Under the pieces are notes generated by a model, which made no database searches, had not been told where the DNA came from, and was given only the letters and a program-made list of their open reading frames with translations. From UHGV virus genome UHGV-0121884: a stretch of 40,758 nucleotides of DNA; one strand, given 5' to 3'. Source of the DNA: a virus. Shown piece after piece: positions 3,974 to 40,540 of this stretch (position 1 is its first letter; each line of letters begins with the position of its first letter). The position numbers and the translations under genes were made by a program.

Positions 3974-4859
3974 TGGCAACCTCCAGTTTCGCTTTGCATT
4001 CTGCGTAAATGGCTTGTACGTTCTGCTGCAATTTCATTCCAGATGTCAGGCGATATGCTTCTGCAAAATATCTCTTCAAATCATCCATGTTTTCAGCCTG
4101 AGCCATTTCATCACAAAGAAGTTGTGCTTTTTCCATTATTTCCTGCTGGCGTTTCCGTTCATCTTCGCGGATATCTTCCTCTGATTTGTGCGGCATAACC
4201 GGTTCCTGATGCATACCCTCATCTTCGTTAAGCAGGTGAATGGCATTATCCAGTCGCTGGGCTTTAGGCCAGTATTTGCTGGCGCGTTTAACTATTGTTT
4301 TACGCGCCATCTCTTCCCAGAATGTCTTCCACGGTCCATTCTTTGCCTTGCTCGTTGCTTCCACAGCTTTAATTTCTGCCAGACTCATTTCTTCAGTCAG
4401 GTAGTCACCATCTGCTGTTTTAACCGTGCAATAACCACCAACAATAGAGCCTCGCTCACCAAATGCGTTGTATTTGTGGGTTGGCGCTGAATCAAGGCCG
4501 TTTGATTCATAGGTGTCGTTTGAGTACACCAGTTTACATTGCCCCCACTTAATTGATCCTGTCGACTGTGCAAGGTGAAGTAATCCCATATAGCTGATAT
4601 CAAGGCAAACCATGCCGTCGCGCGGAACTAGATAAGCAAGTTTGCTGGCCGGGTTTAATGTGATGCCGATCGCCGCAACATTGATGATGGCGTTCTGTGC
4701 GCTGGTTGGATTTGCCAGTGCCGTTTTAGCCAGGTAATCATTTTTCTGGAAATACTGAATTGCAAACTGGCTTTCCTTAGCCCATGTCACCGTCTGTTCA
4801 GTCAATGCTCCGCAGAATAACTGCTCCTGCTGTTTAACGAATTCAACGATATTGCTCAT
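3957..4859 (-). CDS. recT: RecT/Redbeta-family single-strand annealing recombinase
   Basis: 300 aa; conserved C-terminal block GYCTVKTADGDY..EMSLAEI......GPWKTFWEEMARKTIVKRASKYWP typical of RecT family. Confidence 0.75.
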   Translation of the reverse strand: MSNIVEFVKQQEQLFCGALTEQTVTWAKESQFAIQYFQKNDYLAKTALANPTSAQNAIINVAAIGITLNPASKLAYLVPRDGMVCLDISYMGLLHLAQSTGSIKWGQCKLVYSNDTYESNGLDSAPTHKYNAFGERGSIVGGYCTVKTADGDYLTEEMSLAEIKAVEATSKAKNGPWKTFWEEMARKTIVKRASKYWPKAQRLDNAIHLLNEDEGMHQEPVMPHKSEEDIREDERKRQQEIMEKAQLLCDEMAQAENMDDLKRYFAEAYRLTSGMKLQQNVQAIYAECKAKLEVASEQTV

Positions 4860-5167
4860 GCTGCTTCTCCATAAATGTGTCTGCGTTTGAATATTGCGAA
4901 GGCATATTCAGCCTTAACTCTTTCGGTTATTGCATCCCAGAACCATTCAGCGGCTTTTTCCTGATAGTCACAGTCATCATCTTCCAGCCAGTCGATAGCG
5001 TCCTTAGTGTGTTCATCTGGCTTATATGAGCGAAGCATTTCGCTTATTGGGTCGCAGCGTTTGCAGAGGCGATCAACTTCACTGTTGATTCGTTCGTAAT
5101 CTTCATCAGTAAAACTTGCGATGATTTGCGATATTTCACGCTTATCATTCAGAGTCAGAATCATCAT
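4856..5167 (-). CDS. hypothetical acidic protein (103 aa)
   Basis: ORF upstream of and overlapping recT start by 4 nt. Confidence 0.4.
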   Translation of the reverse strand: MMILTLNDKREISQIIASFTDEDYERINSEVDRLCKRCDPISEMLRSYKPDEHTKDAIDWLEDDDCDYQEKAAEWFWDAITERVKAEYAFAIFKRRHIYGEAA

Positions 5168-7807: not shown

Positions 7808-8467
7808 TTAACTAAATGTCTCTTCAGGCCACTGGCTGGCGATAACTTTCCCTACTACGGAACAGCTATCATTGCATGGGATCATTGGATATTGCGGGTT
7901 TAGTGGTTGTAGGAACACCTGACCGCTATCCCTGATCAGTTTCTTGAAGGTAAACTCGTCACCACCAAGTCTGGCTATGCAGAAATCACCTGGCTCAACA
8001 GTCTGCTCAGGGTCAACGAGAATTAACATCCCGTCAGGAAAGCTTGGCTTGGATCCTGTTGGTGCGGTCATGGAATTACCTTCAACTTCAAGCCAAAACG
8101 CACAATCACTGGCTTTTTTGGTTGTGCTGACCCATCTCTCCGCATCGCCTTTGGTAAAGGTTCTAAGCTCAGGCGAGAACATCCCGGCCTGAACATGAGA
8201 AAAAACAGGGTACTCATATTGTTTTTTTAACGGGGCAGATGAGTATTCGCCAACAGGTGAAAATGTACCGTCGTGGTTGAATGAGACGTTATCAATACCA
8301 AGGTATTTAAACACCACACCAATCTCGTCAAGAGATGGATGACGAGATCCGCGCAACCAGTGACCAATTCCACCCTGCGTCATACCAAGCTCTTCAGCTA
8401 ACTTCTCTTGAGTTATGCCGAGTTCTTTCATTCTGGATCTAGCCAGTTCATACCATTTCATTTTCAT
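7808..8467 (-). CDS. c2: CI/C2-type prophage repressor (HTH + S24 LexA-like autopeptidase)
   Basis: [25 protein letters not shown]; Ala-Gly cleavage site in [11 protein letters not shown]; S24 motifs GNSMTAP and FKKL; start taken at MKMKW (8467) rather than ORF-track upstream start. Confidence 0.8.
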
Positions 8468-8578
8468 ATCCTTATTATTACGCTCTGTACTAAAACCATC
8501 CATGCACAAGATGTATTTTTTGTTTGCATTCCAAAAGTACATATCGTATTATTGTTTCATGGTTACTATGGAGGGCAT

Positions 8579-28534: not shown

Positions 28535-29986
28535 ATGGCTACGTGGCAACAGGGTATTAATTCTGGTGGTTTTCTGGCTGGAATTGGTGCGCAAAATGAG
28601 AATGCGCCAAAGGCAAGCGACATTAACGCAACGCTTGGTCTGATTCGCGAAAACAATGAACTGGCTCGATCAGGTGCAAATAACGTTGGTCTGACCGCGT
28701 TACGTGGTCTGGCTGGAGTTGCTGATATTTATAAGCAGCAGCAACAGCAGGAGCGTAAAGCGGCATTCCAGAAAGGTTATGCGGATGCTTATGCGTCCGG
28801 CGACAGGGAGCAGATGCGTAATCTTATTACAGCATTCCCCGAAGAGTTTGAGGAAGTCCGTAAAGGCATGGGGTATGTCGATGACGCCCAGCGGAATGAT
28901 TTTGGCAATCTGGCGCTCAAGGCTCAGGTAGCTTCGTCGCTTGGTCCGGGTGCATTTGGCAGGTTCATGATGGATAACGAAAAGGAGATGCGTCGTTTAG
29001 GTATCCCTCCAGAAACTATTGCGGAAATGCAGGTTAATGACCCGCAGGGCTTCCAGCACTTCGCAGGTAATCTGGCACTATTTTCTCTCGGTCATGAGAA
29101 GTATTTCGATATCAAAGATCAAATGGAAGGTCGGGATATTGAGCGTGGCAAGTTGGCAGAGACGATTCGCAGCAATAAAGCTGGGGAAGGTTTAAAGGCG
29201 CAAAGCATTGCTGTTAGCCGTGAAAACTCCCTGCGCACTGCTGGAGGTGCTGTTCCTGCATCTGTTAAAGAATATCAATATTTCAACAGCCTGTCTCCAG
29301 AGCAACAAAAGACATATCTTCGTGTTCGAGGCCGTCCTGGTGCTGGCGGGGAGAATGTTGTGCAACTGGCAGATGGCAGAACGGTAACGGTTGGTAGGAA
29401 GCTTCACGGCGCTGGTGCTAACGCGTTCTACGAAGGAATAGACAACGAGGGCAATATGATTCGCGTCCCCGCCAGTTCTATTGCTGCTCCGGCTACATCG
29501 GCAGCTAATGCACAGAATTACGAAATGAAGAAAGATCTTGATGCAATTTCTGGCGCATCAATTGACGATCTTGGCTTCATGACAGGTATTACAGGTTCTT
29601 CAGGTTCTTTTGCTCTTGGTGCAGATATTCGTAGCCGGGCATCTGGTGTTGAGGAGAGGAGGCTATACAACGCTGCACAGCGAATCATGGGCAAAATGCA
29701 AAATCAGGGGATTGCAGCAGCCCGAGATATGGGGGCATCTGGCATCAACACCGAAGCAGAGGCCAATAGGTATTTTCAGGGTATGCCAAAGCCTGATTTC
29801 TCAAGTCCTGAAGCGCTGCAACAATCAATGCGCGACATTCAGCAATATACCGACAATTACAACCAGCAATATAACGTTAATGTTGGTAATAGCGGGAAGA
29901 AATCATCAAGGCAACAGCCAGCTACTCAGCAATCAGCAGGAGGTAGCTACACGTCAAAATCAGGCATTCAATTTACGGTGGAATGA
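28535..29986 (+). CDS. ejection protein gp20
   Basis: 483 aa in gp20 position. Confidence 0.7.
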
Positions 29987-31998
29987 TGAAAGTAACTGCA
30001 AATGGTAAGACATTTACCTTTCCTGATGGTACGAGCACGGAAGATATTGGGGCCGCCATTGATGAGTATTTTGCTGGTCAGTCAGCGCCAACACAACAAG
30101 GTGTTCAGCAATCGCCAGCAGACAACTCACTTGCATCAGGATATGCACAGCTTGCCACTCAGCAGAAGGAAGGACTAGATCGCTCTGCTGAGCAAGGGGC
30201 TGTTTTAGGTGCTGCAATGCGCGATGCCGTTACCGGTGAAAGCCGAATGACACCAGAAATGGAGAGACTGCAAAATGTTGGGGCTGCCCCTGAGTTGAAC
30301 TCACTAAGCATGGATGCCCTGAAGGCTGGATGGTCTCAACTTTTCGGCTCCGACGCGTCTCAGGAAAAGATTCTTCAGAGCATGGGGGCGAAATTAAGGC
30401 AGGATGAGAAGGGTAACACTATCGTTTCCCTGCCATCCGGTGATTATGCCCTGAACAAGCCAGGTTTATCACCGCAAGACCTGACTTCGTTTCTTGCTAA
30501 TGCGTTAGCGTTCACACCAGCGGGCAGGGCTGGAACGGTGCTTGGTGCCATAGGGAAATCAGCTGCTACAGATTTAGCACTACAGGGTGGCACCAGCCTT
30601 GCTGGCGGAGAAGATATTGATCCTGCACAAACGGTAATTTCTGCTGGCATTGGTGGTGTTGGCAAGGGGCTGGAAAATACAGTTAGTGCGGTTTCCAGGG
30701 CTGTTCGCGGTGAGATGTCACCGGAAGCAAAGGCTGCTGTCGATTTTGCGTCGGAAAGAAACCTGCCGTTAATGACCAGTGACACACTGAAAGATAAAAC
30801 CTTTATGCAGGGGCAGACCCAAACATTAGGCGAAAGAGTTCCTTTTTTTGGAACCGGTAAGAACCGACTGAATCAACAACAAGCACGAGAAAATTTAGTC
30901 AGAACATTTAGCGATGGTCTGGGGGGAATTTCAGATAAACAGCTTTATGAGTCTGCGACTAAAGGGCAGCAAAAATTCATTGAGGCAGCAGGAAAGCGAT
31001 ATAACCGCATAATTGACGCTATGGGGGATACCCCTGTCGATCTCTCAAACACGGTAAAAGCTATCGACAATCAGATTGCCGTGTTAAGCCGCCCGGGCAA
31101 ATCTCAGGATAGAGCCGCGGTAAAAGTCTTGCAGCAATTTAAAGACGATATCACCAGCGGACCCAATGACCTGCGTCTGGCGAGGGAAAACAGAACCGAT
31201 CTTCGAAAGCGATTTATGGCGTCATCTGACACTGTTGATAAAGATACGCTCCAGAAAGCCAGCGATATTGTCTACAAGGCATATACAGCGGATATGAAAA
31301 AAGCAGTATCCCAAAAACTAGGCTCAGAAGAAGCTGCCAATATGTCTAGGGTTGATCGCTCATGGGCTAGATTCAATGACATGATGGGAAGAACGCGCGT
31401 TCAAAAGGCAATAGCCAGCGGCAAGGCTACACCTGAGGATGTAACAAAACTCGTTTTTAGCCAAAACCCATCAGAACGTTCTCAGCTTTACAGGCTTCTG
31501 GATGACAATGGTAGGCAAAACGCACGAGCAGCCATAGTTCAGAATGCTGTAGATAAGGCGACTGATCCGTCTGGAAATATTAGTGTTGAAAAGTTTATTA
31601 ATGCGTTACACCGGAACAGGAAGCAATCAGCAACTTTCTTTAAAGGCGTACATGGAAAGGAACTGGACGGCGTTATTAAATACCTCAACGATACAAGACA
31701 CGCGGCAAAAGCGAACGTTCAAAACTTAAATGGTCAGCAGCTTTATGGATTGTTAGTTGGTGGTGGCATCATAAACGCAGCAGTATTAGCGGGGATGCTA
31801 AAAACGGCTGCGTTTGTTGTTCCTGCTGCTGGTGTCGTAGGAGGAGCAGCGAAGGCATACGAAAGCCCTGTTATACGAAATGCCTTGTTACGTCTGGCAA
31901 ATACGCCAAAAGGTAGCACAGCATATGACAGAGCGATCAGTACGGTCACACAATCGCTCACCAGAGTCGCACAGGCATCACAAAAAGAAGCTCAATAA
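29983..31998 (+). CDS. ejection protein gp16
   Basis: 671 aa in gp16 position; overlaps gp20 stop. Confidence 0.7.
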
Positions 31999-32015
31999 CT
32001 GGCAGCCACGGATGG

Positions 32016-32366
32016 CTAATTTTTATTCTTTGATCTCGTCCACAGGGAAAGAAGAGCAATGGCAAGACAGGAAACAGAGAATAGATAACCTACCTCATAT
32101 GGTGCGCCAAAAAAATTAGCTATTGATACGGGCAAAAAAGCCGAAGCGATCAGAATTGAAAGGCAAAAAATAAGCCCAGTAACATAGTTTATTAAACTCT
32201 TAAATGAGAAACGTTTTGCTTGATTTACGGTCTCAGCGAGTGATCGCTTAACGATGGATAAAAGCAAATAGATGGCGACAGTAGCTAATGCCCCTTTCCA
32301 CCAGTCTGGATATAGTTTTGCGACAATCAGCCCAAGGAAAACCATGATGACAGACTGAGTATTCAC
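32016..32366 (-). CDS. small integral membrane protein (about 4 TM), immI-region accessory
   Basis: GTG start with AGGAGG 5 nt upstream; hydrophobic helices throughout; occupies the position where P22 carries sieA. Confidence 0.45.
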   Translation of the reverse strand: MNTQSVIMVFLGLIVAKLYPDWWKGALATVAIYLLLSIVKRSLAETVNQAKRFSFKSLINYVTGLIFCLSILIASAFLPVSIANFFGAPYEVGYLFSVSCLAIALLSLWTRSKNKN

Positions 32367-32450
32367 ACCAACCTCCTTAGTTTTGTGCAGGATACCATGT
32401 GACTCAAGGGAGCGCAGCCTACCCGGGTTGGTTAAGTGATTTTGTGCTTA

Positions 32451-33311
32451 TTACTTGTCTGGTGAGTGTTTATAACGGGCCTGTGAAAGGCTGTAGTTAG
32501 CAAATTTCTCAAGGCGCTCAGCAATTTCATCTAGTCGCTTAAGACGTTCGTCAAAGGGTGTATTCTTGTCAAATTTTGCATTTGACCAAAAATCTTGGCT
32601 AACCTTGTGTGCTTCTTCAACCAGTTTCTCTACTTCGCTATGCGGCATTGGAGAGATAAGTTTTTCCCTCTTTATTCGGAACTGAGAATGAATAGCCACG
32701 CCAACAACCTCGATAAAATCAGGTTGGAACATAGGGTATAAAGGGTTAAGTGGCTTAAGGTAGATTTGGCGCTGATCCAGTATAAGCTGCTTAAATGTAG
32801 CCTCAGAATCATCATTCAGCACACACATCACAAAGTCACCAGAAACAGCCTCTAGCGATGAATCGAAAGTTACGATTGTTCCAGGAGGAAAGCTAATCCC
32901 ATCACCGGAAGACATGGAGTCTCCTTGTATTTCAACGGCAAAACAGTATTCATTGGCTTCAGGAGGGGCTGGAATAAAGTCCTTTATAGCAGCAGTCTTT
33001 AGTAAATCATCTAGCGATTCAAATCTTGCCTGTACGTGTGTTAGCACAGGAATCTCGCGCACAGTAACAGTTCTCTTGACACTGCTAACGTCAGGGCCAT
33101 CTCCTTTCCCTTGCGTAAGCCATTCAGTGGTAGTTCCCAATGCAGCCGCAAGGTTTTGAAGTGCCTTTTCTCTTGGCTTGGCTTCCCCGCCCTCGTAAGC
33201 AGCGATCTGTCTGGATACCACGCCTACTTTCTTAGCAAGCTCGGATTGAGTCAAACCGATGGAGTTGCGCGCTATGGCAACTCGTTTAGAAAAAGAATCA
33301 TCAAAACTCAT
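32451..33311 (-). CDS. CI/LexA-like HTH-S24 protein with Ala-Arg at the cleavage position and a C-terminal extension
   Basis: 286 aa; XRE HTH (IGLTQSELAKKVGVVSRQIAAYE), S24 motifs GDSMS and TFKQL; region PVLTHVQARFESL aligns to C2 [13 protein letters not shown] but has AR instead of AG; about 70 extra helical residues at C-terminus. Confidence 0.6.
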   Translation of the reverse strand: MSFDDSFSKRVAIARNSIGLTQSELAKKVGVVSRQIAAYEGGEAKPREKALQNLAAALGTTTEWLTQGKGDGPDVSSVKRTVTVREIPVLTHVQARFESLDDLLKTAAIKDFIPAPPEANEYCFAVEIQGDSMSSGDGISFPPGTIVTFDSSLEAVSGDFVMCVLNDDSEATFKQLILDQRQIYLKPLNPLYPMFQPDFIEVVGVAIHSQFRIKREKLISPMPHSEVEKLVEEAHKVSQDFWSNAKFDKNTPFDERLKRLDEIAERLEKFANYSLSQARYKHSPDK

Positions 33312-33408
33312 ATTTGCACCTTAAAAAATCATTGACTCAATATTAGTCTGGTACTAACCTAATGTTGAAGATTGAGCAATTGAATAACAAAACTACATGA
33401 GGTGAATA

Positions 33409-33582
33409 ATGGAACAGAAGAAAAAAGATATCAAGCCTATCTCCTACCGCCCAAGTGCTGAAGTGCGTGAGTTTTTGGAAAGTAACGCAGCTAAAAGCTA
33501 CCGCTCGACTCAGGGGATGATCGATTTCTTTATGGCTAAGGTCATGGATATGGAGAAGAAAGGTGAAATTATCATCCATTAA
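33409..33582 (+). CDS. small ribbon-helix-helix-like protein (57 aa)
   Basis: ATG 33409 with GAGGTG upstream; PISYRPSAEVREFLESNA resembles Arc/Mnt-type beta-strand/helix; divergent from the HTH-S24 gene. Confidence 0.35.
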   Translation: MEQKKKDIKPISYRPSAEVREFLESNAAKSYRSTQGMIDFFMAKVMDMEKKGEIIIH

Positions 33583-34294
33583 AAACGTTGAAGCCCAACG
33601 GTGGCTAGACCGTCAGGCTTCGGTATCGAACAAATCCTACGACGGAAATATCGATATGAATATTGTAGCAAAATCAGATTACAACTTCCAAGGATTCACC
33701 TTTAACCCAGTAACAGAGGGCGGGTCTATCTGGTTTACCTCCACCGAACTAGCTAAGGCTCTCGGCTATAAAAAAACTGATGCCATCAGCCAAATTTATG
33801 CCCGTAATGCTGATGAGTTTTCCGACTCAATGTCATTGACCCTCAATATGAGTGTCAACGGGATAAACAATAGCTTACGTAACAAATCGGTCAGAGTTTA
33901 CTCACTCCGAGGCGCTCACTTGGTGGCGATGTTTGCTTCTACGCCCAAGGCCAAAGAGTTCCGCCGTTGGGTGCTGGATATTTTGGATCGTGAAGCCACG
34001 GATTCACCGATCGCCAAACAGTTCACAGATGATGAGTTAATCAGCCTTTGCTATCTCCAGCTCTGGATGGAAAAGAGCCAGCGGGTTAGCCAGCAACTTT
34101 ACCCGGCAATGAAACAGGCTAAGTCAGAATACGCAGGGATGCTATACGACATCGCCCACGACATTCGTTATATGACTGTGGAAACCAAGAAGATCCTGCT
34201 TCGTGAAGTACAGGAACTGGATAACAGCAATATTGTCGTGAAGCATGCGCAGCCAATGTTGGCAATGCTTCGCGGTGAGGAATGGATTCACTGA
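33563..34294 (+). CDS. Bro-N domain antirepressor-like protein
   Basis: IWFTSTELAKALGYKKTDAISQIYARN...VRVYSLRGAHLVAMFASTPKAKEFRRWV fits Bro-N; start uncertain (GTG 33563 or ATG 33656). Confidence 0.5.
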   Translation: MKLSSIKNVEAQRWLDRQASVSNKSYDGNIDMNIVAKSDYNFQGFTFNPVTEGGSIWFTSTELAKALGYKKTDAISQIYARNADEFSDSMSLTLNMSVNGINNSLRNKSVRVYSLRGAHLVAMFASTPKAKEFRRWVLDILDREATDSPIAKQFTDDELISLCYLQLWMEKSQRVSQQLYPAMKQAKSEYAGMLYDIAHDIRYMTVETKKILLREVQELDNSNIVVKHAQPMLAMLRGEEWIH

Positions 34295-34378
34295 TTGACG
34301 CACAGGACGGTGCAAAAAGAAAAGCCGACAGTTACGAGCTACCGGCTTTCATTGAAACTTGTCATAAGGGTCCAACCA

Positions 34379-35152
34379 ATGACTTTATTAAATTTAGCAG
34401 TTCATGAGCCAAATGTCGATCCCCAGCCGCTTCCAGTGATTGAATGGGAGGGTTTACGTGTTGTTACGACTGAAACGCTGGCTTCAGGTTATGGTACGGA
34501 TGAGGCTAACATTCGGAAAAACCTGTCACGCAATGCTGGACGCTTCATTGAAGGAATTCACATCTTCACTATTAAAGGCCAAGAGTTGAAGAATTTGCGA
34601 GTGACTAATAGTCACGCACAAATTTCGAACAAAGCTCGTTCAATTGTTTTGTGGACGGAGAAGGGCGCAGCGCGGATGTCGAAAATTGTCGATACAGACG
34701 AAGCATGGTCTTTCTTCGAACGGTTGGAAAATGCTTACTTCCGTCCCTTGGTAAAAAGCATCCTACCGCAGACATACGAGCAGGCTCTGGAAGATTTACT
34801 TCTAAAGGTCAAAGAGAATCGGCTTCTTGAGCAACAGCGCGACAGAGCGGTAAAAGAAAAGTTGTGGATTGCAGCAAAACGCGAAGCTACAGCAATGGCT
34901 ACCGCATCAGCAGCCGTCCGCGCCAAAAACAAATTAGCTGAACGGGTAGGGGAAGGAAAGAACTACGCCGCCATTATCCCGGTAGAAAAGAAGCTGGGGC
35001 AGAAATTCAAATGGCAGCCTCTTCGCAAGTGGTGCCGGGAGAATGACGTCACCCCACATGATGTCAACGACCCACGCTTTGGCTCAGTTAAGTCATGGCC
35101 TCGCGATGCTTGGCTTGCTGTGTATGGCGTAGATCTTCGAAAACTTTTTTAA
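34379..35152 (+). CDS. ORF6N/KilAC-type antirepressor-like protein
   Basis: N-terminal LPVIEWEGLRVVTTETLASGYGTDEANIRKNLSRNAGRFIEGIHIF fits ORF6N domain; start set at ATG 34379 (ORF track uses TTG 34295). Confidence 0.5.
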   Translation: MTLLNLAVHEPNVDPQPLPVIEWEGLRVVTTETLASGYGTDEANIRKNLSRNAGRFIEGIHIFTIKGQELKNLRVTNSHAQISNKARSIVLWTEKGAARMSKIVDTDEAWSFFERLENAYFRPLVKSILPQTYEQALEDLLLKVKENRLLEQQRDRAVKEKLWIAAKREATAMATASAAVRAKNKLAERVGEGKNYAAIIPVEKKLGQKFKWQPLRKWCRENDVTPHDVNDPRFGSVKSWPRDAWLAVYGVDLRKLF

Positions 35153-35177
35153 CCAAAAGGATAGATTATTGCTAATC

Positions 35178-35203
35178 AAACCCGCTTAATCGCGGGTTTT
35201 TTA
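35178..35203. terminator. bidirectional rho-independent terminator between convergent genes
   Basis: AAACCCGC-TTAATC-GCGGGTTT flanked by A/T runs on both sides. Confidence 0.5.
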
Positions 35204-35227
35204 TAAGGAGTATTCATGATTTACCCA

Positions 35228-35764
35228 TCAAACAACCCACCAGTTTGCCTGATTGGATGCCAGCCTTGCGGTTTTTATGGAATTAATTATGCCATGCTCA
35301 AGAGCCTTGTTAGCATCCAAAATGGTCGAGTCTGCTATCAGGGATGCCCACCTAATATGGGTTCCGATGTCGATATTGAACGTCTCAACGAAGCGATCAA
35401 GATCGTTATCGAGGCATTTCCCGTACTCTCTCAATCTGGCATGGTCGGCGGCTGGGGAGGCAAAGCACCATAATAGAGGATGTAACAGGAATCTTGATAA
35501 TGGGTTTGCGAAACGTTCTGAGCCAGCCAGGAAAACGATATTAGCTATGGATTCAACATTGCTTATGTTGTGAGTTCTAACGGTAACAGGGAGTGACTTA
35601 AGAAAGTTATACGCAGTAAAGCCAGCGGCAGTTTCCCCTCCCTGACTTGATATATGGATATTTAATTCAGTTGCGCCTTGAGATAATGCGGTGAGACAGT
35701 GGTTCTGAAGTTGCCCAACAGTGGCAGTGTTAACGGGGCATAAGAAATGAATTGTGTGCAGCAT
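35228..35764 (-). CDS. ClpP-fold serine protease homolog (178 aa), translationally coupled to mnt
   Basis: Aligns to ClpP core: ISSQGGETAAGFTAYNFL vs INSPGGVITAGMSIYDTM; ESIANIVFLAGSERFANPLSRFLLHPL vs [29 protein letters not shown] (candidate catalytic Ser and His retained); start ATG overlaps mnt stop (TAATG). Confidence 0.6.
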   Translation of the reverse strand: MLHTIHFLCPVNTATVGQLQNHCLTALSQGATELNIHISSQGGETAAGFTAYNFLKSLPVTVRTHNISNVESIANIVFLAGSERFANPLSRFLLHPLLWCFASPAADHARLREYGKCLDNDLDRFVETFNIDIGTHIRWASLIADSTILDANKALEHGIINSIKTARLASNQANWWVV

Positions 35765-36018
35765 TATTTATCATCCTTGCCATAAATCTTTTTAAGTGTC
35801 TCAAACACAACGGCCTTGAACTGCTCTGCTTGCTGATCAGCCAAGCGTTCAGCTTCGTCTCGATAGCCTGCAATCGGTGATGGCTTTGAGAGAGCATCCT
35901 GAACGATTTGTAATAACTCAGAGTTCATTGACCTTCCGTTAGCCTCTGCTCTTAATTTCAATTTTTCTCTTACTTCCAAAGGCATACGGAAGTTAAAGTG
36001 CGGATCGTTTCTAGCCAT
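35764..36018 (-). CDS. mnt: Mnt repressor (ribbon-helix-helix)
   Basis: 84 aa; MARNDPHFNFRMPLEVREKLKLRAEANGRSMNSELLQIVQDALSKPSP closely matches P22 Mnt. Confidence 0.85.
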   Translation of the reverse strand: MARNDPHFNFRMPLEVREKLKLRAEANGRSMNSELLQIVQDALSKPSPIAGYRDEAERLADQQAEQFKAVVFETLKKIYGKDDK

Positions 36019-36045
36019 GCCATCACCCCAAGTTAGTGTATTGAC

Positions 36046-36066
36046 ATGATAGAAGCACTCTACTAT
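36046..36066. promoter_or_regulatory. arc operator (Oarc) overlapping Pant
   Basis: ATGATAGAAGCACTCTACTAT, the P22 Arc operator; TTGACA at 36041-36046 serves as -35. Confidence 0.6.
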
Positions 36067-36074
36067 ATTCTCAA

Positions 36075-36093
36075 TAGGTCCACGGTGGACCTA
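36075..36093. promoter_or_regulatory. mnt operator (Omnt)
   Basis: Perfect palindrome TAGGTCCACGGTGGACCTA, the P22 Mnt operator. Confidence 0.6.
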
Positions 36094-36108
36094 TATTGTG
36101 AGGTAAAT

Positions 36109-36267
36109 ATGAAAGGAATGAGCAAAATGCCGCAGTTCAATTTGCGGTGGCCTAAAGAAGTATTGGATTTGGTGCGTAAGGTGGCGGAAGAGAACGGGCG
36201 ATCTGTTAACTCTGAGATTTACAAGCGAGTGTTGGACAGCCTGAAGAGAGAGGGGATAACGGTATGA
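36109..36267 (+). CDS. arc: Arc repressor (ribbon-helix-helix)
   Basis: MKGMSKMPQFNLRWPKEVLDLVRKVAEENGRSVNSEIYKRVLDSLKREGITV closely matches P22 Arc; ORF-track upstream extension judged non-coding. Confidence 0.85.
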   Translation: MKGMSKMPQFNLRWPKEVLDLVRKVAEENGRSVNSEIYKRVLDSLKREGITV

Positions 36268-36485
36268 GGTTTATTGAGGTTGATGAGATTGGCTATGAGA
36301 ATGCACTTGGTAGAGGTAAATCTTTAGTTAACATTGATGGCATTGAATCGATAAGGAGTGGTGAATTTACGGAGATCAGAATGATGTCAGGCGGAATCAT
36401 TCCTTGCCGTGATTCAGTAGAGTCAATCAAATCAAAAATGAGTGGTCAGTGGCTTTATAGCTACAGTGACTTACAAAAACAGTGA
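36264..36485 (+). CDS. hypothetical protein (73 aa) between arc and ant
   Basis: ATG overlaps arc stop (ATGA); followed by hairpin GAAGCCC..GGGCTTC (36485-36520). Confidence 0.4.
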   Translation: MRFIEVDEIGYENALGRGKSLVNIDGIESIRSGEFTEIRMMSGGIIPCRDSVESIKSKMSGQWLYSYSDLQKQ

Positions 36486-36548
36486 AGCCCCAACTGCGGT
36501 AACAGTCAGGGCTTCGGTATCGTAAAACCACGCATAGGAATTAACGAC

Positions 36549-37472
36549 ATGACGAGTGTAGCAATTGCAGAACATACAATCAACGTTCCATTCCACGGAA
36601 CAAATCTCTTTTTGGTCAGCATTAACAATGAACCTTACGTTCCTATGAAACCCGTTGTAGAAGGCATGGGTATGGTTTGGGCTGCTCAATTTGTTAAATT
36701 AAAACAGAGATTTGTCAAAGGTATTTCGGAAATCGAAATACCTTCTGCTGGCGGTAAACAGTTAATGATATGCCTTGCCTTTCGTAAGTTTGCGGCTTGG
36801 CTTTCAAGCATTCAGCCAAACAAAGTCCGTCCTGAAATCCGCGACAAGGTAATCCAGTATCAGGAAGAGTGTGACGATGTGCTATACGAGTACTGGACTA
36901 AAGGTCATGTAGTTAACCCACGCAAAGCTAAAAAGGCGTTGCCGGGTAAAATCACCACTGAACAGCAGGAAGCCATTAAACAACTCGTCATGAGTCGCGG
37001 TCAGTCTCTGCCAAAAGAAAAACAGGCTAAGGCGATGATCACCATGTGGTCCTCACTGAAATCCCATTTTGGATGTTCGTACAAAGAAATCAGTGAGGAG
37101 CAGTTCACCGAAGCACTGTCACTTGCAGCTCGAGTTCCACTTGAAGGTGAGTTCATTGGCAAACAAGAAGAGTTACCAGCGCCAAAACTGGATATTAACT
37201 TCCCGATTTCATGGTTTGCTGAAAATGCACCTTACGCCATTATCAGGCAGCAATGCGGTGATACTGTTGCTCTTGACCGCAGCGCACTCGTTGAATGCAG
37301 TCCGGCGTATAAACTAATCAATATTCTGACAAAAGCGGGGTATGACGTTTCAGCAGTAAGAGCTGAACTAAAAGCACTTCGCCATTTAATGGCTGAGCAA
37401 AGCTGGGCACTTAAAGAGATAGCTTCATTCGCAGCGATACGTGATAGAGCGTGCCACTCAATAAAACTTTAA
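36549..37472 (+). CDS. ant: antirepressor Ant
   Basis: 307 aa downstream of arc as in P22 immI; N-terminal AntA-like region NVPFHGTNLFLVSINNEPYVPMKPVVEGMGMVW. Confidence 0.65.
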   Translation: MTSVAIAEHTINVPFHGTNLFLVSINNEPYVPMKPVVEGMGMVWAAQFVKLKQRFVKGISEIEIPSAGGKQLMICLAFRKFAAWLSSIQPNKVRPEIRDKVIQYQEECDDVLYEYWTKGHVVNPRKAKKALPGKITTEQQEAIKQLVMSRGQSLPKEKQAKAMITMWSSLKSHFGCSYKEISEEQFTEALSLAARVPLEGEFIGKQEELPAPKLDINFPISWFAENAPYAIIRQQCGDTVALDRSALVECSPAYKLINILTKAGYDVSAVRAELKALRHLMAEQSWALKEIASFAAIRDRACHSIKL

Positions 37473-37594: not shown

Positions 37595-40540
37595 ATGACA
37601 GACATTACAGCCAATGTGATTGTATCGATGCCTTCGCAACTCTTCACTATGGCGCGTTCTTTTAAAGCCGTAGCTAATGGCAAAATTTATATCGGTAAAA
37701 TTGATACTGACCCTGTAAATCCTGAAAACCAGATTCAGGCTTATGTGGAGAACGAAGACGGTTCTCACGTTCCTGTTTCTCAACCAATCATCATTAACGC
37801 TGCTGGATATCCTGTATATAACGGACAGATTGCCAAATTCGTTACCGTGCAAGGCCATTCTATGGCTGTTTATGATGCGTATGGTGCGCAGCAGTTCTAT
37901 TTTCCTAATGTGCTGAAGTATGACCCAGATCAACTACGGCAGCAATTAGAAGACCCAGATGGAGCGAATAAATACCCAAAACTTCAGATAGCAAGATGGA
38001 GAGACAGTTATGATGTAAGAGGTTGGGGGGCTATTGGTGATGGTGTTCATGATGATACATCAGCTCTATCAGAATTACTTTCTGTTGCAACAGGTGGTGA
38101 AAAGATAGATGGGCGAGGGCTTACTTTTAAAGTATCAACTCTTCCAGATGTCAGTCGATTTAAAAATGCTCGTTTTTTATTTGAGAGAATACCGGGTCAG
38201 CCTCTTTTTTATGCTTCTGAAGATTTTATCCAGGGAGAGTTATTTAAAATTACAGATACACCGTGGTACAACGCCTGGACGCAGGATAAAACGTTTGTAT
38301 ATGACAATGTCATCTATGCGCCTTTTATGGCTGGAGACCGCCATGGTGTAAATAACCTCCATGTTGCATGGGTTCGCTCAGGAGATGACGGGAAGACCTG
38401 GACAACGCCGGAATGGCTTACAGATTTACATGAAAACTATCCCACAGTTAACTATCACTGCATGAGTATGGGGGTTGTCAGAAATCGCCTTTTTGCTGTA
38501 ATTGAGACGCGGACCGTGAGAGGAAATAAACTGCAGGTTGCAGAGTTGTGGGATCGCCCAATGAGTCGCAGCCTTCGCGTTTATGGTGGTATAACGAAAG
38601 CAGCAAATCAGCAAGTCGCTTATATTCGCATTACTGATCACGGATTATTTGCTGGTGATTTTGTCAACTTCTCAAACTCTGGTGTTACAGATGTTACCGG
38701 GAATATGACGGTGACTACTGTTATTGATAAAAATACCTTTACAGTTACGACGCAAAATACCCAGGATGTGGATCAGAATAACGAGGGTAGATACTGGAGT
38801 TTTGGCACATCATTTCACTCGTCACCATGGAGAAAAACCAGTCTTGGAACTATTCCTTCTTTTGTTGACGGAAGCACTCCTGTTACTGAGATTCACAGTT
38901 TTGCGACGATTAGCGATAACAGTTTTGCTGTTGGCTACCATAATGGTGATATTGGTCCACGCGAGCTTGGGATACTCTATTTCTCTGATGCTTTCGGTTC
39001 TCCTGGTAGCTTTGTTCGCAGACGCATACCTGCAGAATATGAGGCGAATGCATCTGAGCCATGTGTAAAATATTATGATGGCATTCTGTATCTGACGACC
39101 AGGGGGACATTAAGTACTCAACCCGGTAGTTCATTGCACAGAAGCTCTGATTTAGGTACATCATGGAATTCTCTTCGCTTCCCAAATAATGTTCATCACT
39201 CAAACCTTCCTTTTGCCAAAGTTGGCGATGAGCTGGTTATTTTTGGCAGTGAGCGCGCATTTGGTGAGTGGGAAGGAGGAGAACCTGATAACCGTTATGC
39301 AGGAAATTATCCAAGAACATTTATGACCAGAGTTAACGTCAATGAGTGGAGTCTGGATAATGTAGAGTGGGTTAATGTTACTGATCAGATTTATCAGGGC
39401 GGAATAGTTAACTCTGCGGTTGGTGTTGGTTCAGTTTGTATCAAAGACAACTGGCTGTACTACATTTTCGGTGGGGAAGATTTTCTAAACCCATGGAGCA
39501 TAGGGGATAACAACAGAAAATATCCTTATGTTCACGATGGTCACCCGGCTGATTTGTATTGTTTCAGGGTGAAAATTAAACAGGAAGAATTTGTTTCAAG
39601 GGATTTTGTCTACGGAGCCACTCCTAACAGAACGCTTCCTACTTTTATGTCGACGTCAGGCGTGAGGACGGTTCCTGTACCCGTTGATTTCACAGATGAT
39701 GTTGCCGTCCAGTCACTGACTGTCCATGCAGGTACATCAGGACAAGTTCGCGCGGAAGTCAAACTTGAGGGTAATTACGCCATTATTGCGAAGAAAGTAC
39801 CGTCTGATGATGTTACCGCTCAGAGATTAATCGTTAGCGGCGGTGAAACAACGTCTTCAGCAGATGGTGCAATGATAACGTTGCATGGTTCCGGAAGCAG
39901 TACTCCACGTCGCGCGGTATATAACGCACTCGAACATCTTTTTGAGAACGGAGATGTTAAACCTTATCTTGATAATGTAAATGCTCTTGGTGGTCCGGGA
40001 AACAGGTTCTCGACAGTTTATCTTGGCTCCAATCCTGTGGTTACCAGTGACGGAACATTAAAGACAGAGCCGGTCTCTCCTGACGAAGCATTGCTGGATG
40101 CCTGGGGTGACGTCAGGTATATCGCTTATAAATGGCTGAACGCTGTCGCTATAAAGGGGGAAGAAGGGGCGAGGATACATCATGGTGTAATCGCGCAGCA
40201 ACTTCGTGATGTTCTTATTTCTCACGGACTCATGGAAGAAGAAAGCACAACATGCCGCTATGCCTTTCTTTGCTATGACGATTATCCCGCAGTATATGAT
40301 GACGTCATTACTGGCCAAAGGGAAATGCCGCTGACTGATAATGACGGGAGCATCATTGTTGATGAGGATGATAATCCAGTGATGGTAATAGAAGACATCA
40401 TTGAGCGCGTTGAAATAACGCCAGCAGGATCTAGATGGGGGGTCAGACCTGATCTCTTATTCTATATCGAGGCGGCATGGCAGCGCAGAGAAATAGAAAG
40501 AATAAAAGCTAGGTTAGACTTAATAGAAGGGAAGCACTAA
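37595..40540 (+). CDS. tailspike: P22-type head-binding domain fused to endosialidase (endo-N-acetylneuraminidase) with C-terminal intramolecular chaperone domain
   Basis: 981 aa; N-terminus [57 protein letters not shown] matches P22 gp9 head-binding domain; C-terminal 164 aa (from Ser818, motif SDGTLK) matches K1-phage endosialidase chaperone domain; GGAG SD. Confidence 0.85.

Follow-up and report, generated by a model that had tools for sequence, protein, structure and literature searches.

Why a prophage with a main repressor of its own should carry a second gene for a CI/LexA-like protein is the question raised by the virus genome UHGV-0121884, of which the whole stretch of 40,758 nucleotides was analysed here (the window). 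The gene in question (32451–33311, minus strand), recognised as an open reading frame (ORF) and by Pfam and the Prokaryotic Genome Annotation Pipeline (PGAP), encodes a 286-aa protein with an HTH_3 domain, a Peptidase_S24 domain and a C-terminal tail, here called S24L. We consider it likely that S24L is the maintenance repressor of a self-contained and portable antirepressor cassette of the P22 immI type, in which it occupies the place of Mnt. Its conserved partner is the operon that diverges from it, made up of a 57-aa gene of putative ribbon-helix-helix (RHH) type, a sar-like RNA and antirepressor genes, which a first-pass annotation of the same DNA had overlooked.

The window represents a P22-like (Lederbergvirus) prophage of E. 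coli, with a late region ~94% identical to those of CUS-3 and phiv205-1. The S24L cassette lies between a gp16-type ejection gene (29983–31998) and the tailspike gene (37595–40540), the position held by sieA-mnt-arc-sar-ant on the P22 map. Casjens and colleagues named this hypervariable late-operon insert the 'ant moron', and in P22 it contains sieA, orf59a, mnt, arc, sar and ant (PMC2629481). The main prophage repressor is encoded elsewhere (7808–8542, minus strand); it has a lambda-CI-type C-terminal domain (3bdn, E 4e-96) with the Ala-Gly dipeptide intact, and is not of the P22-C2 type. This main repressor is a mosaic, its lambda-CI C-terminal domain being fused to a different N-terminal helix-turn-helix (HTH), and its true start probably lies downstream of the listed ORF start.

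The first gene of the divergent operon (33409–33582, plus strand) encodes p57, a 57-aa protein of putative Arc-like RHH type (phrog_10182, E 1e-34). In an hhalign comparison p57 aligned in register with the Arc of the window (E 3e-4, probability 40%), and an AlphaFold2 (AF2) model built from the single sequence gave a coil-helix-helix arrangement compatible with RHH; a tblastn search of isolated phages with p57 returned zero matches. Immediately beyond is a sar-like antisense RNA (33586–33654, minus strand), matched over its full length by Rfam RF00262 (40.0 bits, E 1.2e-5), so that Rfam places two sar RNAs in the window, a canonical one (36481–36547) and this divergent one. The sar-like RNA is flanked exactly by the p57 stop and the probable start of the antirepressor gene, overlaps the ribosome-binding site (RBS) and start codon of that gene, and has a fold z-score of -5.96. 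A promoter for it, predicted purely by consensus scan (TTGGAA-18-TG-TACAAT, 33662–33691, minus strand), would start the antisense transcript near 33655; it has an extended -10, and its position relative to ant matches that of P22 P_sar.

The gene that follows (33656–34294, plus strand) encodes a 212-aa antirepressor-type protein with Bro-N and P22_AR_C domains by Pfam and PHROG (P22_AR_C, E 5e-12; PHROG anti-repressor Ant, E 4e-51), its function being assigned by homology only. Its true start is probably the ATG at 33656, since PGAP uses this start in a related locus (L002) and homologues align from residue 31, and this start leaves the 73-bp gap that holds the sar-like RNA. The ORF is open from a GTG at 33563 (243 aa, overlapping p57), and PGAP uses either start in different genomes. 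The second effector gene (34295–35152, plus strand) encodes an ORF6N-domain antirepressor-type protein (Pfam ORF6N, E 9e-20; phrog_4936 and anti-repressor PHROGs).

This arrangement recurs well outside the window. Genomic context was looked up in Lonsdalea, Yersinia, Klebsiella, the genomes of 16 further species and E. coli strains, and of 21 distinct loci 19 show the order of HTH-S24 gene, ~98-bp divergent region and 57-aa gene, most of them with a sar-like element directly after p57. The p57 ORF is uncalled in loci L016 and L005, yet tblastn detects p57 in both; in L016 (Rosenbergiella metrosideri, 4730–4900) the homologue has an in-frame stop at codon 3, with a decaying cassette or an alternative start both possible. 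In loci with called or annotated genes, antirepressor-type genes come next (P22_AR_N, Bro-N/P22_AR_C, KilA-N/ANT, pRha, ORF6N). With a covariance model built from three sar sequences, the sar-like element was located in this same place in most of the cassette loci (E <= 0.013 in 14, weaker in five more). Its terminator helix is 95.7% paired, against 78% in shuffles and ~45% in slid controls, with compensatory changes at 9 of 14 pairs; fitting of the alignment to the model biases it towards pairing, and it is the slid controls and the compensatory counts that we regard as strong. In two Yersinia enterocolitica loci (L007 and L008, 5253–5702) p57 is separated from the sar-like element and antirepressor by an inserted T5orf172 (GIY-YIG-related) gene, and the sar-like element lies directly upstream of the antirepressor gene. 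The neighbouring tail cluster there has a GIY-YIG/NUMOD3 homing-endonuclease-like gene.

The cassette is preserved as one block in the prophages of many Enterobacterales. Its backgrounds are of two kinds, the ant moron of P22-like podoviruses and the tail clusters of siphovirus-type prophages (tape measure/TMP, tail-L, Big_2), and its presence within siphovirus tail-gene clusters indicates a portability that extends beyond P22-like phages. What lies downstream of the S24 gene varies by locus (NYN, DUF2513, tail genes, or none). Most of the S24L module of the window is present in only 6 of 5,426 complete E. coli genomes (>=80% query coverage), one of the six being without the 116-aa gene that lies downstream of S24L. 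Taken together, the synteny, the sar match, the in-register alignment of p57 with Arc, the P22_AR_C domain and the genomic position argue for an immI-type arc-sar-ant cassette in which Mnt has been replaced by a CI-like repressor. Since the divergent gene encodes HTH and S24 domains rather than RHH, the cassette is an immI variant rather than a member.

The domains of S24L are clear. Pfam assigns HTH_3 to residues 14–65 (E 6.7e-10) and Peptidase_S24 (PF00717) to residues 110–206 (E 3.8e-16, 59 bits against a cut-off of 23), and the AF2 model has a pLDDT of 81.8 overall, exceeding 90 in the HTH and S24 core. The 434-type HTH domain (residues 7–67; 33111–33293, minus strand), with AF2 helices at pLDDT ~90, is matched to the 434 repressor in a PDB profile search (E 4e-11). 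The lambda-CI-like S24 domain (residues 86–211; 32679–33056, minus strand) has both members of the Ser-Lys dyad, Ser132 in GDS132M (codon 32916–32918, minus strand) and Lys174 in FK174Q (codon 32790–32792, minus strand), aligned with lambda S149 and K192.

The known determinants of S24 self-cleavage are an Ala-Gly or Cys-Gly dipeptide together with the Ser-Lys dyad, the role of Gly at P1' being documented (PMC8565304). In S24L the bond homologous to the lambda CI Ala111-Gly112 scissile bond is Ala95-Arg96 (33024–33029, minus strand). Three comparisons agree on the register (PVLTHVQA95-R96-FESL against lambda A111-G112-MFSP), namely a MAFFT alignment of 124 sequences, a comparison of the family profile with solved structures, in which the lambda CI chains 2ho0, 3bdn and 8gmu were the top matches (E ~1e-29), and a Foldseek search with the AF2 model, with lambda CI, LexA and UmuD as top matches. 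Among the solved structures matched by Foldseek are Gly-to-Asp LexA mutants (1jhf, 8b0v). No Ala-Gly or Cys-Gly dipeptide occurs in the entire protein, so an intact cleavage site cannot lie elsewhere in it.

Much of what the first-pass annotation had said of this protein is borne out. It had described a 286-aa minus-strand protein with an XRE HTH and an S24 domain carrying Ser and Lys motifs, as the ORF and Pfam analyses confirm; its reading of Ala-Arg at the cleavage-site position agrees with the alignment, profile and Foldseek comparisons; the notion of a second repressor separate from the main immunity repressor is supported; and the roughly 70 extra C-terminal residues that it counted amount to about 75. 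An alignment to LexA and CI families had been suggested as a check, with an intact Ala-Gly placed elsewhere counting against the claim; this alignment was made, and there is no Ala-Gly anywhere in S24L. A comparison sequence ascribed to 'C2' proved to come from the main repressor of the window, which is lambda-CI-type. The suggestion of a non-inducible variant holds in part, as Ala-Gly is absent and the protein looks non-SOS-cleavable; S24L is not a point 'ind-' variant, the loss being family-wide.

A search of a large protein database found 171 homologues, the best of them 92% identical, so that the exact S24L sequence is absent from that database; the identical protein is WP_021548181.1, which PGAP annotates as 'LexA family protein'. 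Most homologues have 255–306 aa and come from Klebsiella, Cronobacter, Yersinia, Lonsdalea, Pantoea, Providencia, Morganella, Proteus, Xenorhabdus and others. Conservation was counted in alignment A1, which has 97 cluster representatives and in which the S24 domain takes up 126 columns. Conservation across the family is highest in the HTH (mean column conservation 0.78). The P1' residue is Gly in 3 of the 97 members and otherwise I, M, S, A, R, L, K, F, N and others, and its column ranks 126th of 126, the lowest conservation in the S24 domain; P1 is Ala in 52 of 97. The absence of Ala-Gly extends to all 21 cassette repressors, and the dipeptide is kept in 9 of 14 canonical short CI-type matches (P0107–P0120). 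With P1' so variable across the family, Ala-Arg is a family property and not a point variant.

The dyad has fared differently from the bond. Ser132 is retained in 93 of the 97 members, Lys174 in 87 and both in 85; a dyad residue is lost in the other 12 (K to R in seven, S to A or G, K to V or M), and four intact cassettes have a repressor with one of the two missing (L001, from phage JEP4, S to A; L020, K to M; L021 and L023, K to R). On our reading of these alignments, canonical self-cleavage dependent on activated RecA (RecA*) appears to have been lost in the S24L family, and the constraint on the Ser-Lys dyad appears relaxed yet clearly non-zero.

The C-terminal tail spans residues 212–286 (~75 aa; 32454–32678, minus strand); when the tail-containing half of S24L was searched against isolated phages, canonical CI C-terminal domains were the sole matches. 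Structure prediction, which the earlier annotation had proposed for this extension, gave two helices in AF2 (227–243 and 253–281, pLDDT 52–78). Across the family a variable linker is followed by a conserved amphipathic helix (ERLKRLDEIAERLEKF) with the motif RLxxIExxLxxLL..KKP(T), the end often being KKPT. An exhaustive tail-only search of 1.84 billion representative proteins returned five matches, the family member P0006 and four short proteins of 94–129 aa that match at their C-terminal end, and found no other architecture carrying the tail; no solved structure covering it was found in the PDB profile search or by Foldseek. By analogy with the tetramerising C-terminus of Mnt, the tail helix may be an oligomerisation helix. 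Cassette repressors of 213–225 aa without the tail are known from JEP4 (L001, 5001–5642) and from loci L024 and L026; these too have no Ala-Gly, and they are still paired with the divergent 57-aa gene and Rha/KilA-type genes. The tail is hence dispensable for the cassette.

The divergent control region between S24L and p57 (33312–33408, 97 bp) has an architecture of ~98 bp that is constant in 22 intergenic regions (the 21 loci and the window). It holds the RBS of the S24L gene, a P_ant-like promoter facing the p57 operon (-35 TTGACT, 33332–33337; 17-bp spacer; -10 TAACCT, 33355–33360) and then CATGAGGTGAATAATG, the RBS and start of p57. A candidate operator, ATCA-TTGA-CTCA, lies over the -35 and includes the 11-bp palindrome ATTGACTCAAT (33331–33341); a second candidate operator is ATTGAGCAAT (33371–33380). 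Across loci a repeated 4-bp half-site, CTCA..CTCA or CACA..CACA, lies on either side of the -35, and a matching TGAG or TGTG is found ~35–50 bp downstream. The second base of the half-site tracks residue 33 of the recognition helix, CACA occurring with Arg33 and CTCA with other residues; the beta-strand of p57 does not track this difference. This covariation, untracked by p57, supports the binding of the HTH protein over the predicted promoter. No LexA-box-like CTG-N10-CAG was found in any cassette promoter.

The inverted repeat in this region that had earlier been taken for an operator (TCAATATTAG / CTAATGTTGA; 33337–33346 / 33359–33368) is real, being complementary at 9 of 10 positions. It was rejected as an operator candidate, since 11% of shuffles of the same 97 bp contain a repeat as good and it is degraded (TCAATATGTG) in the closest relative, E. 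coli A10, where the repressor is 96.5% identical.

We propose the following scheme, holding each of its steps with less confidence than the overall assignment of S24L as maintenance repressor. In the lysogen, S24L dimers would bind through the 434-type HTH to sites over the -35 and spacer of the P_ant-like promoter, and also to a second site ~40 bp downstream, and p57 and the antirepressors would be kept silent. The lambda-CI-like S24 domain would provide dimerisation, and the conserved amphipathic C-terminal helix may allow assembly of a dimer of dimers for cooperative binding, comparable to the C-terminal coiled coil of Mnt. Once infection has occurred, antirepressor synthesis would be limited by p57, in the manner of Arc, and by the sar-like RNA. 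The absence of Ala-Gly and the unconstrained P1' across the family suggest that S24L is most likely not cleaved via RecA*; remaining uncleaved after DNA damage, it would form a second, SOS-insensitive layer of immunity, like Mnt, with the main lambda-CI-type repressor staying SOS-cleavable.

Other readings of the locus must be weighed against this one. S24L could still be a proteolytic switch, its dyad cutting a non-canonical bond (Ala95-Arg96 or one in the tail linker) or another protein in trans, triggered by RecA* or another signal, with the cassette serving for inducible antirepressor release. This would fit the joint presence of Ser132 and Lys174 in 85 of 97 members at such highly ranked columns, the P3–P1 residues (Val/Ala-Gln-Ala) kept in many members and the confidently lambda-CI-like S24 core of the AF2 model, and the related clan-SF signal peptidases accept variable P1' residues. 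Set against it are the most variable column of the domain at P1', the lack of any alternative conserved dipeptide in the cleavage-site region or tail, and the dyad losses, which in four cases fall within intact cassettes, so that catalysis cannot be essential to cassette function. Gly at P1' is, moreover, a documented determinant of S24 self-cleavage (PMC8565304), and we regard a switch of this kind as unlikely. A broader form of the idea, that the family consists of pseudo-substrate-free S24 protease-repressors whose dyad performs non-canonical proteolysis, RecA-independent or differently triggered, on the protein itself at a non-Gly site or on a partner, seems to us a rather long shot; if it were true, it would mean an SOS-independent, signal-gated release of antirepressors in many Enterobacterales prophages, and cross-induction of co-resident prophages.

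The effectors could instead form an anti-phage defence or abortive-infection module, with S24L holding the Bro-N and ORF6N proteins in check until a superinfecting phage inactivates it. A repressor outside SOS control could serve as a guard, the site is a cargo hotspot with a YafO toxin-antitoxin in related prophages, and ORF6N and Bro-N give PADLOC matches to the candidate system PDC-S05 (E 3e-7 to 3e-3). These matches are weak and at domain level, however, and those of S24L (to RmrA and CapH) span the HTH only; the arc-like, sar-like and ant layout resembles immI, with a known role in antirepression, and the PHROG annotations are overwhelmingly anti-repressor, all of which leaves a defence role improbable. 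That S24L activates the counter-oriented operon is very improbable. CI-type proteins are capable of activating transcription, and the layout, with an XRE-type regulator divergent from a small ORF on the way to repressor inactivation, resembles that of the transcription factor–small ORF (TF-smORF) modules (PMC10432266). The candidate sites here, however, overlap the -35 of a near-consensus promoter (TTGACT-17-TAACCT) that should have no need of activation, p57 is RHH/Arc-like rather than a small antirepressor, and the sar-like RNA and Arc-like gene argue for an operon that is repressed and tightly limited.

The model of the first-pass annotation, in which the HTH-S24 protein and the four-transmembrane (four-TM) protein encoded downstream form a lysogen-expressed exclusion or sensor module, finds very little to sustain it and is in our judgement extremely improbable. 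The two genes do point the same way, 84 bp apart and with no terminator called in the gap, and the TM ORF, which lies in the sieA slot, has a strong RBS. The pairing is nevertheless confined to copies of this one prophage; identical, 96.5%-identical and distant repressors occur with unrelated downstream genes, homologues of the 116-aa TM protein occur without the repressor, and the junction falls exactly at the leader shared with sieA.

Several observations count against our preferred assignment of S24L as the keeper of an immI-type cassette, or against parts of it. The Pfam matches of the p57 family are below the cut-off (RHH_5 in 8 of 17, Arc in 6 of 17) and include ParD, and the sar-like match is 3 bits under the Rfam gathering score of 43. 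Clade structure confounds the half-site covariation, which fails in the JEP4-like clade, and in a shuffle test the individual symmetric elements of the window's control region are not above chance. That S24L represses rather than activates is inferred only from the position of the sites. The Ser and Lys columns rank 11th and 18th of 126, which a purely structural role does not account for, and P3–P1 (Val-Gln-Ala) is fairly conserved across the family, leaving room for cleavage with relaxed P1' specificity. The oligomerising role suggested for the tail is drawn from an amphipathic helix of modest model confidence. Finally, the long form of S24L is found nowhere in a collection of 50,697 isolated-phage records.

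Comparison with known systems shows where the cassette departs from them. Like P22 immI, it lies between gp16 and tailspike and has a maintenance repressor set divergently against a small first gene, probably of RHH type, that is followed by a sar-type RNA and an antirepressor with P22_AR_C. It differs in that Mnt is an 83-aa (tetrameric) RHH protein and S24L has 286 aa with HTH, S24 and tail, in that the antirepressors are Bro-N/P22_AR_C and ORF6N instead of P22_AR_N/AR_C, in the only remote likeness of p57 to Arc, and in its occurrence also in siphovirus tail clusters. S24L has in common with lambda CI, 434 cI and LexA the 434-type HTH, the lambda-CI-type S24 fold, the Ser-Lys dyad and the conserved strand EIPVLTHVQA before the cleavage site; unlike them it has no Ala-Gly or Cys-Gly, an Arg at a hypervariable P1' and an extra tail of ~75 aa, and its predicted target is an antirepressor operon and not early lytic promoters, in a prophage with a separate main repressor.

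Antirepressors under LexA control are known from the Gifsy phages, N15 (AntC) and coliphage 186 (Tum) (PMC3121763). There, as proposed here, a dedicated repressor silences an antirepressor gene, and derepression would inactivate the primary prophage repressor; the repressor in those cases is host LexA and SOS-inducible, whereas S24L is phage-encoded and without the scissile bond, and its promoter is without a LexA box. The regulators of the TF-smORF modules carried by linear plasmid-like phages switch on a small antirepressor peptide (Silpe et al., 2023; PMC10432266). These modules resemble the S24L cassette in pairing a counter-oriented regulator with a small ORF and in offering an SOS-independent route to repressor inactivation; in the S24L cassette, by contrast, the small ORF is putatively of the RHH DNA-binding type, the antirepressors are large Bro-N and ORF6N proteins and repression is the most likely action of the regulator. 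The two showed no sequence relationship.

Antirepressor modules govern whether and when prophages induce, and whether one phage wakes another. If S24L acts as proposed, the P22 immI circuit would exist in a widespread portable version whose keeper is a CI/LexA-like protein that has shed the SOS-sensitive bond and gained a putative oligomerisation-type tail; the S24L version is seen in Escherichia, Klebsiella, Yersinia, Lonsdalea, Pantoea, Providencia, Morganella, Xenorhabdus and others. It would be a case of modular exchange at the level of the cassette, with Mnt swapped for a CI-like repressor and arc-sar-ant kept. The second immunity specificity that it would confer is hidden under the pipeline label 'LexA family protein', which invites the wrong inference of SOS inducibility, and none of the curated family models (NCBIfam) matched S24L above cut-off. 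That the ant moron varies is already known, and CI/LexA-type repressors and antirepressor circuits are textbook matter; the literature yielded this framework and analogous circuits, and no description was found of the S24L repressor family or of an immI cassette under its control, both of which are apparently new. The family also offers a natural series of 'ind-' S24 domains in which to ask what a Ser-Lys dyad does without its substrate, and the dyad's unexplained retention is to us the most intriguing point.

The gene downstream of S24L (32016–32366, minus strand) encodes a 116-aa protein with four hydrophobic segments, and begins at a GTG with AAGGAGG 5 nt upstream (the PGAP version is shorter, 109 aa); the earlier description of a small 4-TM protein with a strong RBS, downstream in the same orientation, was correct. 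It had also placed the pair at the P22 sieA position, which on the P22 map is right for the 116-aa ORF but not for the 286-aa gene, which sits at the orf59a/mnt position. The 36 bp of leader, RBS and GTG (32364–32399, minus strand) are 100% identical to the translation-initiation region of P22 sieA. This 36–40-bp leader (CATGGTATCCTGCACAAAACTAAGGAGGTTGGTGTG) is common to four mutually unrelated envelope ORFs (window, L001, L002, L003, L027), namely P22 SieA (164 aa, multi-TM), the 116-aa four-TM ORF of the window, an unannotated two-TM ORF of 62 aa (JEP4 and E. coli 10035776-3) and a signal-peptide protein of 129 aa (E. coli A10), and the cargo exchange junction is exactly at its GTG start codon. 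A repressor identical to S24L has the 62-aa ORF downstream in E. coli 10035776-3, and the 96.5%-identical repressor of A10 has the 129-aa exported protein.

Only 19 homologues of the 116-aa protein were found, none in phage records and none linked to S24L outside this one prophage; one, 85% identical, lies beside gp16 in P22-like prophages without an S24 repressor. The shared leader and the unlinked homologues indicate that the ORF is exchangeable cargo of the sieA slot and not a partner of S24L, and the idea of a functional module of repressor and membrane protein falls with the repressors that have other downstream ORFs and the homologues that have no repressor. In the lysogen the gene is probably transcribed together with S24L. 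Searches of Pfam, PHROG, PADLOC and NCBIfam gave no match, and the protein is plausibly a candidate superinfection-exclusion-type envelope protein. It resembles P22 SieA in occupying the slot directly after gene 16, in the identical 36-bp leader, RBS and GTG, and in being a small multi-pass inner-membrane protein; it differs in having no detectable sequence similarity (BLASTP E 8.3), in length (116 against 164 aa), and in that the annotated P_sieA promoter is not conserved. Cargo swapping at the start codon of a shared leader yields a shortlist of candidate exclusion proteins.

Directly downstream of the S24L cassette lies a second, canonical immI-type module (35228–37472), so that the window holds two immI-type cassettes in tandem. 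The canonical module comprises a Mnt-like 84-aa gene (35764–36018, minus strand), Arc (36109–36267), the canonical sar RNA (minus strand; 77.7 bits in Rfam) and Ant (36549–37472). In CUS-3-type prophages (E. coli APEC O1, S88 and others) a YafO-family toxin-antitoxin replaces the S24L cassette (~32000–35230), and the 99% identity of the flanks between the window and these YafO-bearing prophages marks a cargo hotspot between gene 16 and a ClpP-like gene. The latter is a 178-aa protease ORF (35228–35764, minus strand) abutted by the Mnt-like gene; the two are apparently co-transcribed, and the Mnt-ClpP pairing is conserved in many E. coli prophages.

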